Origin: an uncultured Psychroserpens sp.
GTDB taxonomy: Bacteria; Bacteroidota; Bacteroidia; Flavobacteriales; Flavobacteriaceae
Reading direction: 5' to 3'
Assembly: GCF_947501425.1 (NCBI RefSeq)
Contig: NZ_CANMVN010000007.1
Location: 98,197-162,196 of the forward strand
DNA: 64,000 bases
The notes under the pieces are model-generated. The model had not been told where the DNA came from and ran no database searches. It saw nothing but the letters and a program-made list of their open reading frames with translations. Below are positions 1 through 8,275 of this stretch, piece after piece. Position 1 is the stretch's first letter. Each line of letters starts with the position of its first letter. The position numbers were made by a program, and so were the translations under genes.

Positions 1-1
1 T

Positions 2-715
2 CTGAATCAATTCTGAAATAGGATCTACTTTAGAGTCTTCGATATAAAAATGCACGATATAGGTTAATTTTATAGCATTAGCCACGTAGTTTTTATTAAA
101 TCTTTCTATATAACTTGAGTGTAATTGAGGATCTGCAAAACGATTAATATCCCAGTTGGAAATATCTGCATTATGAAAACCAAACTGTTGGTTCCAAATA
201 CCATTCTCTACCGAAAATTGCCTAGCTATGTCTAATGTCGCAAATTTGATGCCTTTGGACTCTAAATACGATTTATAAGTAACACAAATTTGAATGTCTT
301 CCGGATGATGTTCTTTAATGTGTTGATCATTTGCCAACAACTTCAACAACTTTTTAGATCTCAAGCTAAATCCACCATTTCCAATTCCCCAATTGCATGG
401 AGCTCCAATATAGTCGTAATTAAGAAAATCACTTGTCCATGCCTGAGGATTAAGAACATAACCATCAAATTGTATGATTAGAACAAACTCCGTTTCAATA
501 TATTTATGTAATTCCTCAATCACAAATTGACTATAAGCTTCTATAGAATCAATTTTAGGAATCTTAACAACACTTTCATGTTTTGAATCAAGATGGGATA
601 ATAATTTAACCGACTTAAAATTAATTTCCTTTTGTGAAATCTGAGAGGCATAAATAAGTCTATCAATATTTACGCAATCTATTCCTAATAAGGTAACATT
701 ATCTAAATTAATCAT
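2..715 (-). CDS. DUF5672-like putative glycosyltransferase fused to a second (GT2-like?) domain; 3'-truncated by window edge
   Basis: Not in the ORF track. Hand translation from ATG at 715 (6 nt after the GT9 stop) is open for 238 codons to the window edge: MINLDNVTLLGIDCVN...IIQFDGYVLNPQAWTSDFLNYDYIGAPCNWGIGNGGFSLRSKKLL...PED...FSVE...FGFH. A new domain appears to begin at KLTYIVHFYIED. Confidence 0.8.
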   Translation of the reverse strand, partial: MINLDNVTLLGIDCVNIDRLIYASQISQKEINFKSVKLLSHLDSKHESVVKIPKIDSIEAYSQFVIEELHKYIETEFVLIIQFDGYVLNPQAWTSDFLNYDYIGAPCNWGIGNGGFSLRSKKLLKLLANDQHIKEHHPEDIQICVTYKSYLESKGIKFATLDIARQFSVENGIWNQQFGFHNADISNWDINRFADPQLHSSYIERFNKNYVANAIKLTYIVHFYIEDSKVDPISELIQ

Positions 716-721
716 GGAATA

Positions 722-1894
722 TTAACTTTTAACCTTAGAAATAAACTCAGGAATAGCGGCAAAAAGATGTAATTGAAGCATGGCATCAAATACAGATTTG
801 AACTGTGATGGCATGTGCTTAATATCGAAAGGTATTTGCTTAACGTGATCTAACATAAACGTTCTACTGTCTAGGTCACTTATCTCAATGAGGTATTCGT
901 TTTCATGACTTTTAAAAATAAAACTATCGTCTTCAATATGAATTTGATAATCTGGGTTTAACATATACATATTGGAAGTCTCATTTAAAATCCGATTTAG
1001 AAGTTTCATTAAATAAAACATCATTTTAGACGGCTTCACATTATTAAGACAAACTCTATCCTCGCAGTTTAGAATGACATTGTAGTTGCATCGTAAAGAA
1101 CAATTACCTCGTTTTCCCCAGATAAGTTCCACATGTTCAGAGAAAGCTCCCCAAGAACCAGGACCTGTTGGTCCATAAATGGTCAAAATTGGAATATTAA
1201 AAGCTCCAGCTAAATGCGTGATTCCTGCATCATTCCCTATATGAAATTGTGCTCCAGAAACTGCTAAGGCCACCTCATCAATATCACCTGTAACTAATTC
1301 ATAATTCAAATTAGAGGTTTTAAAATGTGGCTCTGGATTAGGATCATTGGGACCAATAATGATCTTAGCTTTAAGATATGGATAACATTCGTTTATAAGT
1401 TCAATGAGCTCTGCATAGTAGTCAATTGGCCATGCTTTTAATAAAAACCCAGCACCTGGATGAATTGTGTAATACAACTCAGAGGCTTCAACTTTATCAA
1501 AATAAGGATACCTCTCGTTAGTTTTTTTTATATGAGGAAACTCTGCTACGATACCATCTTTATAATGCTCAATAGAATGCTGCTTGACTTTTTTATGTGT
1601 ATGATAAACTATTTGTGGTCGTTTCTCAAGGTCATTATTGAACCTTGGATAATTACCTAATTCTATAACTGTATCGTAATTAGATTCATCAACAGAATTT
1701 TCATCAATAACTGAAATACCTTTTAAATGAGTTTGAAATAAGTTGACCAAACGCGGTTGTGTAGCAAAAGTAATTGTCTTAAACTGCTGTTTCAACATGT
1801 ATATTGATGGCAAGGTAAAGAAAATATCACCTATACCACCATAACTTTTATAGACAAGTATCGAATCTGCTACAGCACTTTTTTCAGTGTTCAT
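722..1894 (-). CDS. Glycosyltransferase family 9 (heptosyltransferase-like) with ~80 aa C-terminal extension
   Basis: GGIGDIFFTLP, HPGAG..KAWP..Y and IGNDAGITHLAGAFNIPILTIYGPT motifs; Cys cluster C265/C269/C277/C282; no signal peptide. Confidence 0.85.
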   Translation of the reverse strand: MNTEKSAVADSILVYKSYGGIGDIFFTLPSIYMLKQQFKTITFATQPRLVNLFQTHLKGISVIDENSVDESNYDTVIELGNYPRFNNDLEKRPQIVYHTHKKVKQHSIEHYKDGIVAEFPHIKKTNERYPYFDKVEASELYYTIHPGAGFLLKAWPIDYYAELIELINECYPYLKAKIIIGPNDPNPEPHFKTSNLNYELVTGDIDEVALAVSGAQFHIGNDAGITHLAGAFNIPILTIYGPTGPGSWGAFSEHVELIWGKRGNCSLRCNYNVILNCEDRVCLNNVKPSKMMFYLMKLLNRILNETSNMYMLNPDYQIHIEDDSFIFKSHENEYLIEISDLDSRTFMLDHVKQIPFDIKHMPSQFKSVFDAMLQLHLFAAIPEFISKVKS

Positions 1895-2052
1895 TTTTAT
1901 TGCTTTTTATCATTCATAGAATGGTGACAGTTTAATACATACGGCCATAACTAAAAGTGTTTTTCAAATTACACTTGACAGCATAACTTAAAAAACACCT
2001 TGTATCTCGAATTTTATATTGTATCGCTAACTCAAGTTATTGACTGCTCATA

Positions 2053-2322
2053 CTAATAACCATCGTCATAGTAGCCATCATCGTAGTAACCATCATCGTA
2101 ATATCCGTCATCATAGTAACCATCATCATAGTAACCATCATCGTAATATCCATCATCATAGTACCCATCGTCGTAATATCCGTCATCATAATAGCCATCA
2201 TTAAACATTGAATCGTCGTCAGAATCTGTAGAACAAGATGTTACAGAGATTCCAACAATACTAGCAACAGACGTTATTAATAGCGTCTGACCTGCTTTTT
2301 TTATAAAGTTCCTTCTTTTCAT
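2053..2322 (-). CDS. Twin-arginine/lipobox-leader peptide with ten (D/N)DGYY repeats; putative precursor or surface lipopeptide
   Basis: KRRNFIK motif, hydrophobic stretch, VTS-C30 lipobox, acidic STDSDDD, then NDGYY-(DDGYY)8-DDGY. Synonymous codon variation within the repeats and a dedicated -7 promoter motif support a real gene. Confidence 0.85.
   Translation of the reverse strand: MKRRNFIKKAGQTLLITSVASIVGISVTSCSTDSDDDSMFNDGYYDDGYYDDGYYDDGYYDDGYYDDGYYDDGYYDDGYYDDGYYDDGY
2056..2202 (-). repeat. 15-bp coding tandem repeat, ~10 units
   Basis: Units of the form GAY GAY GGN TAY TAY. All four Gly codons and both Asp and Tyr codons are used; only units 5=6 and 2=7 are identical at the DNA level. 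Confidence 0.97.
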
Positions 2323-2346
2323 ACCTTTATAAATAATGGTTCAAAA

Positions 2347-2354
2347 CAAAAATA
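2347..2354 (-). promoter_or_regulatory. Bacteroidota -7 promoter element (TATTTTTG) for the repeat-peptide gene
   Basis: Matches TAnnTTTG, 24 nt upstream of the ATG at 2322, with a TTG 18 nt further upstream. Confidence 0.6.
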
Positions 2355-3428: not shown

Positions 3429-3989
3429 TTAGTTCGATCCTCGTTTTCCGTTTCCTAAAACAACATCGATTTTTGAAGTTAATGGGAGTAATACGCCTGC
3501 TTTAATCGTTTTACCTTTGTGTTTGATAGCAATGACTTCTTCTTTTCCTATATCATCTACATAAGTCACATCTCCAACAACAAATCCTAAAGTTTCCAAT
3601 GTTGGTTTTGCCTGTCGAAATGTTCTTCGTACAATATTTGGCACAGCAACTTTACGATAGCCCGATGGGTTTAAGGTGAGGTATATTTTTCGATTTTCTT
3701 TGACCTGAGTTCCTGCTTTTGGATACTGTTCTATTACAGAATATTTTGGATATTTCGGATTGTAATTGGCTGAGTCCTGAATTTCCATAACCAAATCATT
3801 ATCGTCCAATTCAATCTGAACAGTTTCTAATGTTTTTCCTTTGAGGTTAGGCACTTTGATAAACTCACCATGATTAGTTGTACTATTTAACCATTGCATG
3901 GTGAAAAAAATGATGAGCACTAACGCAACAGCAGCTAATGCTAGCTGTTTGAAAAATGTTTTGCTTTTAAGAAACTGTACGAGGCTCAT
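3429..3989 (-). CDS. PASTA domain-containing protein
   Basis: N-terminal TM helix, then two PASTA-like repeats (VPNLKGKT..., VIEQYPKAGTQVK; VPNIV). Confidence 0.85.
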   Translation of the reverse strand: MSLVQFLKSKTFFKQLALAAVALVLIIFFTMQWLNSTTNHGEFIKVPNLKGKTLETVQIELDDNDLVMEIQDSANYNPKYPKYSVIEQYPKAGTQVKENRKIYLTLNPSGYRKVAVPNIVRRTFRQAKPTLETLGFVVGDVTYVDDIGKEEVIAIKHKGKTIKAGVLLPLTSKIDVVLGNGKRGSN

Positions 3990-6328: not shown

Positions 6329-8275
6329 TTAATCAATTCTTATCTTTAAAGACATCTGTGTTCCTGCATTTATTTCAGAATTCAGTTCAATCTCTGCGCC
6401 TATATCATGAGCACGTTTTTTTATATTATTTAGACCGTTTCCTAACTCGACTTTAGTCATATCAAATCCTTTACCATCGTCGCTGACAGAAGCGTATACA
6501 AAACCCTCTCTTATGTCAAAGTCTACGGAAATATGCTTTCCTTCAGAATATTTAATTGCATTATTGATACTTTCCTGAATGATACGATAGATATTCATTC
6601 CTTCAACAGAGGTGAATTTTAAGTGTTCCACTTTTGAAGAATTAGAATTAAACTTAAAACTCATATCATCTGAGGCTAAATTTGCTTTTTCAACGAAATT
6701 AGATATTCTGGATTTAAGATCTTCAACTGATATTTCGGTTTTGTTCATGGCCCAAATCGTATCCCGCAATTCATAAATAGTTGATGTTGTGAACTGACTT
6801 ATTGTATTGAGTTTTGTATTCAATTTATCATCCTTGATATCAAAACCATATTTCAAATTATCAATAGAGGAAATAATGAAAGTCAGTTGGGCTCCAATAT
6901 TGTCGTGTAGATCTCTGCTAATTCTGAGTCGTTGTTCCTGCAAACGATTTTGAGTTTCTATTTTTAAGAGCGCGTCCTTGAGTTCATTTTCCTTAAGGAG
7001 TTGATTATTTTTGAGTTTTTGCTGATTATAGAACAAAAAACCCAAAAGTCCTAATAGTAAAGCAAATCCTATTGAACCATATAGCTGATAATTTTGTTTC
7101 TGGATGGTTAATTCTTGCTCAGCAATTTCAGCTCTTTGAACTAAAATTTCACGTTCTTTTTTTTCAGTTTCATATTTAATTTCAAAATCTGCAATAGCAT
7201 CAGCATTGTTTTTAGAAAAAACAGAGTCTTTCAATGTGAGAAAGTTTTGTCTATGCATTCTTGCTTTTGAAAAATTATTAAGCATGTAATGACTCTCTGC
7301 ACAGGTTAAATGTAAGTCGGCAGAAATAAGCTCAATTTCGGGATAGAGTTTTACCAATTCAAAGCCTTTTTTGGCATAGTTTAAAGCTACTTGAGGTTGG
7401 TTCATTTCGTTATATAATGCTGAAATATTATTTAGTGTTATTAATTCTGATTTTTGTTCAGAATCATAGTCCTCTGGTTTGCTCAAAGCTTTGAGGTAGG
7501 TTTGAAGTGCTAAATTAAGATTCCCATTTTCATTATAGGCATTACCAAGATTATCGAGTAGTTTATAATATTCGATCAAATTATTTTTTCGTTTAGCCAG
7601 ATCAATTCCTTTTTTATAAATCAAAATTGCCTCGTCTGTTCTCCCAAGATCTTTAAGATTAATTCCAATATTATTTAAGGATGTAATTTGTTCATTTTGC
7701 ATATCATATTTCTCTCTAATTACGAGAGATCGCTTATGATACTCCAATGCTTTTTCACTAAAATTCATTTCTTGATAAATAAGACCAATATTATTTAAAG
7801 ATACTGATGTAGACTTTTCATCACCTTTTTCCTCGTTCATTTTTAGAGCTTCAAAAAAATACTTCAATGCCTCATCATAATTAGCCCTGTTCCAATGATA
7901 CATCCCCAAATTATTAACACACATAGACTCTATGATATCAAATTTATAATCACGACTCATTTTGAGTGCCTTTTTAAAATAATATCCTGCAGAATCAGAT
8001 TTACCAGTAACATCCATATAAATACCATGTGTATTAGTAAGTTCTGTTAATCCAAAATTAAATTGGGCTGCTTTAGCTAATGTTTTACCTTCATTAATCA
8101 CCTCTATTGCCTTCTTAGTATCATTAAAAATATAGCTGAATGCTATTTTATTTAACATCCTGATTTTAGCAGAATCATTTTTTGTCTCTCTAGCAACAGT
8201 TAAAAGACTATCAAGATTTTGTGAGTAACTTACAGCATTTACGATGCACAAAAAAAATAAAAATGCAGGTCTCAT
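6329..8275 (-). CDS. TPR-repeat sensor histidine kinase (HisKA_3 type)
   Basis: Signal peptide, several TPR repeats (NNLG/NNIG), one TM helix, RISRDLHDNIG H-box, QESINNAIKYS / DDGKGF / GNGLNNIK ATPase boxes. Confidence 0.92.
   Translation of the reverse strand: MRPAFLFFLCIVNAVSYSQNLDSLLTVARETKNDSAKIRMLNKIAFSYIFNDTKKAIEVINEGKTLAKAAQFNFGLTELTNTHGIYMDVTGKSDSAGYYFKKALKMSRDYKFDIIESMCVNNLGMYHWNRANYDEALKYFFEALKMNEEKGDEKSTSVSLNNIGLIYQEMNFSEKALEYHKRSLVIREKYDMQNEQITSLNNIGINLKDLGRTDEAILIYKKGIDLAKRKNNLIEYYKLLDNLGNAYNENGNLNLALQTYLKALSKPEDYDSEQKSELITLNNISALYNEMNQPQVALNYAKKGFELVKLYPEIELISADLHLTCAESHYMLNNFSKARMHRQNFLTLKDSVFSKNNADAIADFEIKYETEKKEREILVQRAEIAEQELTIQKQNYQLYGSIGFALLLGLLGFLFYNQQKLKNNQLLKENELKDALLKIETQNRLQEQRLRISRDLHDNIGAQLTFIISSIDNLKYGFDIKDDKLNTKLNTISQFTTSTIYELRDTIWAMNKTEISVEDLKSRISNFVEKANLASDDMSFKFNSNSSKVEHLKFTSVEGMNIYRIIQESINNAIKYSEGKHISVDFDIREGFVYASVSDDGKGFDMTKVELGNGLNNIKKRAHDIGAEIELNSEINAGTQMSLKIRID

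Follow-up and report, generated by a model that had tools for sequence, protein, structure and literature searches.

Gene organization

A 64,000-nt stretch of a contig from an uncultured Psychroserpens sp. (here called the window; all coordinates are window positions) carries at its left edge, on the minus strand, a gene for a short repeat peptide followed by genes for two glycosyltransferase-type proteins. A first-pass annotation of this DNA had described an 89-aa gene with its own -7 promoter motif, a glycosyltransferase of family GT9 and, 6 nt further on, a DUF5672-type protein, all directly after an rluD-PASTA pair, and each of these elements was recovered on the minus strand. We report here that the peptide and GT9 genes occur strictly together and side by side, and we think it on balance probable that they belong to a module dedicated to glycosylating a peptide or lipoprotein. 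The features of the locus are listed below (ORF, open reading frame; Tat, twin-arginine translocation; RiPP, peptide made by the ribosome and then modified post-translationally; RRE, RiPP recognition element).

2347..2354, minus strand: -7 promoter motif of the Bacteroidota type TAnnTTTG (TATTTTTG), 25 nt before the peptide ATG, a consensus match only
2053..2322, minus strand: 89-aa precursor ORF with Tat signal, lipobox, acidic stretch and repeat
1955..2000, minus strand: perfect hairpin plus U-run between the peptide gene and GT9, from a terminator scan and RNA folding
722..1894, minus strand: 390-aa cytoplasmic GT9-family glycosyltransferase of GT-B fold, from Pfam PF01075, an AlphaFold2 (AF2) model and Foldseek
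725-1051, minus strand: RRE-like C-terminal domain of GT9 (aa ~283-390), from a separate domain model and fold matches
1..715, minus strand: DUF5672 half (N-terminal 238 aa) of a 458-aa DUF5672+GT2 protein, from Pfam PF18922
2384-3424, minus strand: rluD
3429-3989, minus strand: PASTA-domain protein

The gap between GT9 and the DUF5672 gene is 6 nt. The latter gene leaves the window at its left edge, and with the genome flank its full extent is -661..715 (G000:C7:97536). It had rightly been called a DUF5672-type fusion, of which the window holds only part; the complete gene in the genome encodes 458 aa, with a GT2 domain in the C-terminal half. This protein matched PF18922 at 68.5 bits (cut-off 24.4), PF10111 at 31.3 (27.3) and PF00535 at 29.4 (23.3), and the DUF5672 domain of the window matched PF18922 at E 3e-19. 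The first-pass annotation had also advised looking to the left of position 1 for more enzymes or a protease, and there the advice led only to the rest of the same gene and then to yaaA, with no further enzyme, protease or transporter gene in that flank. Its remark that neither enzyme carries a signal peptide agrees with the absence of any hydrophobic segment in the GT9 and DUF5672 proteins, whose maximal 19-residue Kyte-Doolittle scores are 1.27 and 1.11.

The hairpin between the peptide gene and GT9 consists of a perfect 21-bp stem followed by a U-run (-34.1 kcal/mol, z = -2.9). An equivalent hairpin was found in 10 of 12 folded type-B loci, with differing stem sequences, and none was seen in L078, L079 and Rasiella. 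In type-A (fusion-type) loci the distance from peptide stop to glycosyltransferase start is from 3 to about 30 nt at the closest. Judged from its sequence, the hairpin is probably an intrinsic terminator or attenuator of a leaky kind, and a leaky terminator would give more precursor than enzyme.

Co-occurrence of the peptide and GT9

In order to follow the two genes beyond the window, we scored their presence in 401 Flavobacteriaceae genomes, with GT9 orthologues called at E < 1e-80 and three weak peptide matches (E > 1e-4) left out. The peptide was found in 27 genomes and the GT9 orthologue in 28, and the two sets were equal save for G145, which has GT9 without the peptide and whose contig ends inside the glycosyltransferase gene, so that the upstream region is missing. 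Co-occurrence was therefore complete in the 27 testable genomes. Each of the 27 peptide loci that were fetched had a GT9 homologue downstream, in the same orientation.

We further searched one genome per species with the GT9 alignment, which gave 80 loci in about 20 genera: Psychroserpens, Algicola, Aureisphaera, Mangrovimonas, many Flavobacterium, Altibacter, Aequorivita, Formosa, Xanthomarina, Hanstruepera, Planktosalinus, Subsaxibacter, Zunongwangia, Kordia, Bizionia, Moheibacter and one Chitinophagales metagenome-assembled genome (MAG). An RR-(xGYY)n ORF stood directly upstream on the same strand in 77 of the 80, and the other three had less than 410 bp of upstream sequence. The synteny and co-occurrence check proposed with the first-pass annotation has thus come out in its favour, the pair being present in 27/27 testable genomes and adjacent in 77/77 testable loci. 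That annotation had also named what would speak against it, namely peptide homologues mostly without the glycosyltransferases, or glycosyltransferases at ordinary lipopolysaccharide (LPS)-core loci. The peptide was never found without the glycosyltransferase; the contexts of the enzyme vary and include no LPS locus, and its scores lie far below every heptosyltransferase cut-off.

When ORFs were clustered over ±7 kb flanks, the peptide and GT9 were the only families common to all loci, which fall into at least five neighbourhoods. The rluD/yaaA neighbourhood of the window was found in only a subset of loci, and in Rasiella the same trio lies between VanY-type and S51 peptidase genes. No conserved protease or transporter gene, no ABC/MFS exporter and no immunity gene was found in any locus. 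A profile of the RRE-like domain, run against a phylum-wide sample of 401 genomes, found only the genome of the window organism; beyond a subset of Flavobacteriaceae, the system is therefore rare.

The repeat peptide

The 89-aa ORF consists of MKRRNFIKKAGQTLLITSVASIVGISVTSC, followed by STDSDDDSMF, one NDGYY, eight DDGYY units and a final DDGY. It had been described as a Tat/lipobox (DDGYY)10 peptide, of which the Tat motif, the lipobox and the 19 Tyr stand, the exact repeat being NDGYY-(DDGYY)x8-DDGY. The leader starts with MKRRNFIKK (Tat motif RRxFIKK) and runs through a hydrophobic region to a lipobox, VTSC, with Cys30. In the 60 mature residues there are 23 Asp, 19 Tyr and 10 Gly. At the DNA level, Tandem Repeats Finder reported a 15-nt period and 9.7 copies. 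The eight identical DDGYY units are encoded by six DNA versions whose differences are all synonymous, so that selection must act on the repeat at the protein level and recent slippage does not explain it. Right before the repeats the window peptide has D-S-M (2206-2214, minus strand), which fits what we take to be the general O-glycosylation motif of Bacteroidota, D-(S/T)-(A/I/L/V/M/T); it is not kept in homologues and is probably incidental.

Sixteen homologues of 55-74 aa were present in the protein collection, from Rasiella, Hanstruepera, Psychroserpens and metagenomes, with a shared leader and 3-7 units. Scans of the peptide against NCBIfam and Pfam found no family. Conservation was then counted over 76 further precursor sequences from the fetched loci. 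R-R-x-F is invariant (100%), and the [IL] and K of the Tat consensus occur in 64% and 86%. Of the 76, 75 retain the lipobox Cys, 71 of them at a fixed position, and the only precursor without it comes from the Chitinophagales MAG. Before this Cys stands [ILVA][STAN]S, and after it SSDDD, SSDDS or SDDDD. Among about 620 repeat units, 490 are DDGYY, 52 GDGYY, 31 NDGYY and 15 DNGYY, with D-G-Y-Y as the invariant core, and copy number is hypervariable, from 3 to 19. Leader identity is about 50%, compared with 54% for the GT9 core, and about three quarters of the loci have precursors of 55-100 aa.

With its match to the twin-arginine consensus (S/T)-R-R-x-F-L-K, its hydrophobic region and a TatC encoded in the genome of the window organism (224 bits), the peptide is a predicted Tat substrate. 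By its pattern, a lipobox Cys with a polar residue next to it and acidic residues at +2 to +6, it is likewise a candidate surface lipoprotein. In Bacteroidota, lipoproteins are sent to the cell surface by a lipoprotein export signal (LES; SDDDD for B. fragilis, SDDFE for F. johnsoniae; PMC5080379), and the acidic stretch after the Cys of the precursors matches this SDDDD/SDDFE consensus.

In some precursors the repeat departs from the common form. In L059 (G291; 7001-7291) a hydrophobic residue replaces the first Asp of units (VDGYY, MDGYY; also EDGYY) and a Cys stands at each repeat end (..NLCGGYY....GGYPC), so that only D-G-Y-Y is invariant; the glycosyltransferase fusion of this locus is shorter, at 559 aa. 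The precursors of L043, L058 and L124/L125 have a poly-Asp tail (…GYYDDDEDDD, …GYYDDDDDDDDD) in place of the final DDGY.

A conserved, folded C-terminal domain of 112 aa comes after leader and repeat in 20 of the 80 loci, for instance in Aequorivita and Altibacter, giving a lipoprotein of about 200 aa. NCBIfam and Pfam scans found no family for this domain, and a profile search of the PDB gave only a weak match, to the uncharacterised protein 4zgf (E 0.015). Since the domain follows the repeat in these loci, some genera have the repeat as a stalk between lipid anchor and head, and in other genera it makes up the entire mature product. Altibacter lentus (L042/L095; L042 7001-8031) has two tandem precursor genes ahead of one glycosyltransferase fusion, encoding a 95-aa repeat-only peptide and a 236-aa form with 17 units and the 112-aa domain.

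The GT9 enzyme and its C-terminal domain

The 390-aa enzyme is a GT9-family (CAZy/Pfam) GT-B glycosyltransferase. It matches PF01075 at E 2.8e-17 (63.3 bits, cut-off 22), and its AF2 model, built from a 33-sequence alignment, has a predicted local distance difference test score (pLDDT) of 83.9 and shows a GT-B fold with two Rossmann lobes. The best Foldseek matches of this model were the Veillonella GT9 (3tov), WaaC and WaaF (E 1e-11 to 3e-13), followed by TibC (E 4e-10). The equivalents of WaaC D13 and K192 (here D23 and K153) are invariant, as is a GNDxGxxH motif.

An identity as LPS-core heptosyltransferase was rejected. All six NCBIfam equivalog models scored far below their cut-offs (3- to 25-fold; the best, TIGR02195, at 42.8 against 134.6 bits), and in about 110 loci, none of them LPS-related, the repeat peptide is the sole constant neighbour. 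For the donor, eight genomes carrying the system were searched for an RfaE-type kinase (TIGR02198, domain I), and only generic sugar-kinase matches of at most 62 bits against 345 were obtained; GmhA, GmhB and HldD were not searched. ADP-heptose is therefore an unlikely donor. The genome of the window organism has two other GT9 genes elsewhere.

After the C-lobe stand four near-invariant cysteines, C265-x3-C269-x7-C277-x4-C282. TibC has a four-Cys iron finger in a comparable place (Cys339/342/358/370), essential for assembly and activity (PMC4358343). Membership in the bacterial autotransporter heptosyltransferases (BAHT) was rejected by sequence, as the family profile reached TibC only at E 2.1 and a single-sequence search gave no match at E <= 1. 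Because the Cys spacing differs from that of TibC and TibC is no relative by sequence, the likeness is one of apparent analogy, not of membership.

RREs are PqqD-like winged helices whose sheet has three strands. Modelled alone from 38 sequences, residues ~283-390 gave a pLDDT of 91.4, with four beta-strands followed by helices. The best specific fold matches were the RRE of PbtF (8t19; probability 0.99, TM-score 0.60, 89 columns) and those of ThcOx, LynD and TruD. A profile search of the PDB with this domain returned no match to an RRE. We call the domain RRE-like in fold, rather than a confirmed RRE, because the E-values are weak and no PqqD/RRE sequence model matched. Its profile found 33 representatives in 1.84 billion proteins, all of them C-termini of these GT9s or fragments. 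Most stand-alone RRE-like proteins of 70-100 aa look like GT9 C-terminal fragments at contig ends; the only one in a complete locus context is a 79-aa ORF in Hanstruepera ponticola, beside the peptide and a GT2. That this stand-alone ORF is kept shows that the RRE-like domain is an independent unit.

The second transferase

The partner of GT9 differs between lineages. With the N-terminal domains of the fusions assigned by Pfam PF00534 and PF01755, the 80 loci have the following architectures.

64 loci: fusion of ~690 aa, GT4-like at the N-terminus and GT9 at the C-terminus
13 loci: short GT9 of the window type, with DUF5672-GT2 after it in every case
2 loci: GT25-like N-terminal domain (one beside a GT4-like domain, one cut by a contig end)
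1 locus: no partner visible, the contig ending 207 bp upstream of GT9

The GT4-like fusion and DUF5672-GT2 are thus mutually exclusive (64 against 13 loci). The short form was found in at least three contexts, and the rluD/yaaA site holds the GT4-like fusion in Mangrovimonas-type genomes and the short form in Psychroserpens. For the GT2 half, only 6 of 401 genomes have homologues, always beside the GT9 of this system. A metagenomic protein of 894 aa (P0114) joins GT4-like, GT9, RRE-like and DUF5672 domains in one chain, the last 55% identical to that of the window; in Chitinophagales versions a C-terminal GT4 domain is added instead. The link of DUF5672 to the system drawn in the first-pass annotation is borne out by all 13 short GT9s and by the P0114 fusion; it does not extend to all members, most lineages using the GT4-like fusion. 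The pattern is that of a priming enzyme that stays constant while the extending enzymes change with the lineage, and in it DUF5672-GT2 is tied to the system and replaceable.

A stand-alone DUF5672 protein of 227 aa, 57% identical to the domain in the window, is encoded in a Flavobacteriaceae genome without the peptide/GT9 system (G288:C4:364798-365439), so that only the GT2 half, and not DUF5672, is confined to the system. The GT4-like domain of the fusion enzymes (e.g. L042 8121-10193) has a conserved Cys-rich stretch, YDYNFC..R....C.......V..CCH, which suggests a possible second metal site.

Proposed mechanism and alternatives

We infer the following route from these data. The 89-aa product would be a precursor whose N-terminal 29 residues serve as a Tat signal peptide ending in a lipobox. 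The soluble GT9 would grip this precursor in the cytoplasm by its RRE-like domain, most likely at the conserved signal or leader region, a plausible handle because the leader is about as conserved as the enzyme core. It would then use a nucleotide sugar, which is probably not ADP-heptose, to place a sugar on the DGYY units, where the Tyr hydroxyls are the likeliest sites. A second transferase may lengthen the glycan, namely DUF5672-GT2 here and, in most relatives, the GT4-like or GT25 domain that is joined to GT9. The bulky modified chain would be exported by Tat and lipidated at Cys30, and signal peptidase II would remove the signal. Finally, the SSDDD-type stretch after the Cys would send the product to the surface, giving an acidic glycosylated brush or stalk, with the 112-aa head in some genera.

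Several points weigh against this route. In Psychroserpens-type loci a terminator-like hairpin parts the peptide gene from GT9, and co-transcription is not assured. The RRE assignment is by fold, with Foldseek E-values of 0.04-0.4, and a PqqD/RRE sequence match was absent both when Pfam was run on 38 C-terminal domains and when PF05402 was run against the genome at E <= 10. The co-occurrence counts are phylogenetically non-independent, though contexts and architectures differ. Bacteria rarely O-glycosylate Tyr, and the acceptors known for GT9 enzymes are mainly lipid-linked. AIDA-I and HMW1, which are glycosylated in the cytoplasm, use Sec, and the rationale for Tat is not compelling alone; we know of no natural glycosylated Tat substrate.

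The transferases could instead make a non-protein glycan, such as a glycolipid, an LPS-core variant or an exopolysaccharide (EPS), with the repeat lipoprotein as partner and not as acceptor. Its role could be that of a surface anchor, a receptor, a chaperone or a Ca2+/Fe3+-binding acidic matrix protein. We consider this unlikely, yet it draws on real features: most structurally solved GT9s are LPS-core transferases, LPS and EPS loci typically contain enzymes of the GT9, GT4, GT25 and GT2 families, and strict gene linkage shows a common function, not the identity of the acceptor. Against it, about 110 loci contain no flippase, polymerase, lipid-carrier transferase or exporter, and the enzymes have no membrane-association segment. 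Moreover, GT9 bears a fold that resembles the peptide-binding RREs and is exclusive to the system, and enzymes and pre-export precursor are both cytoplasmic, which makes the precursor the simplest acceptor.

If the precursor is accepted as the substrate, the question becomes what is made of it. In a true RiPP, the repeat would be cut into small glyco-peptides or released as a soluble product with a signalling, metal-chelating or antimicrobial role, and the Tat/lipobox region would be only a leader. A short precursor whose leader is conserved and whose repeat number is hypervariable (3-19), an RRE-like domain on the enzyme, and a terminator-like hairpin after the precursor gene, as in many RiPP operons, are what one would expect of such a pathway. 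We nevertheless find it improbable: a protease, an ABC/MFS exporter and an immunity gene are lacking in every locus, the lipobox Cys with its LES-like acidic stretch in 75/76 precursors argues for a lipid-anchored product, and the folded domain after the repeat in 20/80 loci fits a stalk, not a cleaved core. The glyco-pentapeptides whose release the first-pass annotation had considered find no support in these data. Its RiPP analogy holds in part, because a short precursor with conserved leader and variable core does adjoin an enzyme with an RRE-like fold; it fails for a dedicated leader protease or exporter and for peptide release, of which no locus gave a sign, and for the predicted fate of the product, which is anchored.

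A different chemistry on the peptide, either a sugar or sugar-phosphate on Asp or a glycogenin-like primer for a long displayed polysaccharide, appears to us just as improbable as the true RiPP. An Asp precedes G-Y-Y in almost all units (490 of about 620 being DDGYY), and each system has two to three transferase domains. However, glycosyl esters on Asp are labile and we know of none as a stable protein modification; no processive synthase-type membrane glycosyltransferase is present, and a long polymer would be an unlikely Tat cargo. Since the repeat is the linker of a folded-domain lipoprotein in 20 of 80 loci, we think that a module dedicated to lipoprotein glycosylation describes the system better than a classical RiPP cluster would. 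Only tentatively would we go further and see in it a new class of ribosomal glyco-lipopeptides or glycoproteins, in which an RRE-like domain would read a Tat signal as leader, GT9 would O-glycosylate the Tyr of (DDGYY)n in the cytoplasm, interchangeable transferases (including DUF5672 as a new type) would extend the glycan, and Tat would be used for a cargo with bulky glycans.

Relation to known systems

A literature search found no description of the system, of a DDGYY-type repeat, of a DUF5672 function or of a natural glycosylated Tat substrate, in line with the view of the first-pass annotation that no such system had been described. TibC and AAH have a WaaC-like GT-B fold, glycosylate repeat proteins inside the cell before export and need the Cys4 iron finger (PMC4358343). 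Like these BAHT pairs (TibC/TibA, AAH/AIDA-I), the present system has a soluble GT-B enzyme of heptosyltransferase fold, encoded beside a repetitive, predictably exported protein that would be its acceptor, with Cys4 after the C-lobe and a fold match to TibC (E 4e-10). It differs in the likely acceptor, Tyr in DGYY instead of Ser in a beta-helix, in the predicted substrate, a Tat lipoprotein instead of a Sec-exported autotransporter, in the apparent absence of an ADP-heptose pathway, and in the extra RRE-like domain and second transferase.

In the serine-rich-repeat glycoproteins of Gram-positive cocci, a low-complexity repeat is O-glycosylated to a high degree in the cytoplasm by a dedicated GT-B priming enzyme (GtfA/GtfB); lineage-variable glycosyltransferases, one of them a DUF (DUF1792), extend the glycan, and accessory Sec export leads to surface display. 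Here phylum, enzyme families and repeat are different (DDGYY versus SASASAST), as is the predicted route, Tat and a lipid anchor versus SecA2/Y2 and LPXTG, and the products are smaller (55-240 aa).

Fusions of RREs with glycosyltransferases of the GT2 family (PF00535) have been predicted bioinformatically and are uncharacterised (PMC7470986, PMC12710340), and cacaoidin is a RiPP with a Tyr-O-linked disaccharide. The system shares with RRE-dependent RiPPs (glycocins, cacaoidin and the RRE-glycosyltransferase fusions) a short precursor with conserved leader beside an enzyme of RRE-like fold. In contrast to them, the enzyme is a GT9 and not a GT2, its RRE-like domain does not match PqqD/RRE models by sequence, the putative leader is a Tat/lipoprotein signal to be removed by the general machinery, protease and exporter genes are lacking, and in about a quarter of cases the precursor is a real lipoprotein that includes a folded domain.

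By sequence and by fold, the enzyme is matched best by WaaC, WaaF and WaaQ of the GT9 family, with the catalytic Asp and the nucleotide-binding Lys/Asp conserved, whereas the present gene is never in an LPS locus and always by the peptide, its product has the extra Cys4 and RRE-like domain, and RfaE is missing. A parallel may also be drawn with the Tat proofreading chaperones TorD, DmsD and NapD, each of which binds the signal peptide of one Tat substrate until its maturation is complete. The RRE-like domain may similarly hold the Tat signal peptide until modification is done, though its fold is unrelated and the maturation would be glycosylation instead of cofactor insertion. The system would thus work like BAHT pairs, serine-rich-repeat systems and RRE-dependent RiPP tailoring, and is a member of none. 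It would be of a known kind, the dedicated cytoplasmic glycosylation of a repeat protein, in an unusual combination of parts.

Dedicated glycosylation of this kind is known from a few pathogen adhesin systems, namely AIDA-I/TibA, HMW1 and the serine-rich-repeat proteins. If the proposed route holds, free-living marine Bacteroidota would have invented such glycosylation independently, with Tyr-rich pentapeptide units as acceptor, a GT9 retargeted from lipid to peptide and Tat as export route, and the RRE-like recognition domain would link protein glycosylation to the logic of RiPPs. It would then include the first natural glycosylated Tat substrate and the first RRE-guided GT9, and would place a dense brush of Tyr-linked glycans on the flavobacterial surface. 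The system opens the questions of whether Tat carries natural glycosylated cargo, whether one peptide can act both as export signal and as RiPP leader, and what DUF5672 does, and a modular leader-directed enzyme acting on a simple repeat could serve glyco-engineering. Because repeat number is variable and the second transferase can be swapped, surface variation is suggested, possibly of relevance to phages or grazers.

Variation within genera and outside the family

Two congeners of the window organism in the same GTDB genus (G066 and G350; L038/L060) carry a fusion-type system in another neighbourhood, with a convergent GT2 gene and a GT9 that is 38% identical, and strains of P. mesophilus carry either type (L072, L116). 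Since type and neighbourhood differ in this way among congeners and strains, whole modules appear to have been gained, lost or transferred within the genus. Hanstruepera ponticola has at the rluD/yaaA site a decayed copy (L004/L005/L064, 6001-7252), made up only of the peptide, the 79-aa ORF and a 253-aa GT2, and on another contig a complete fusion-type system (L056/L121). Outside the family, the Chitinophagales MAG (L146) and the proteins P0103/P0105 represent a version whose precursor has the Tat motif and no lipobox Cys, and whose glycosyltransferase of about 1060 aa bears the extra C-terminal GT4 domain (PF00534/PF13692) after the RRE-like domain.

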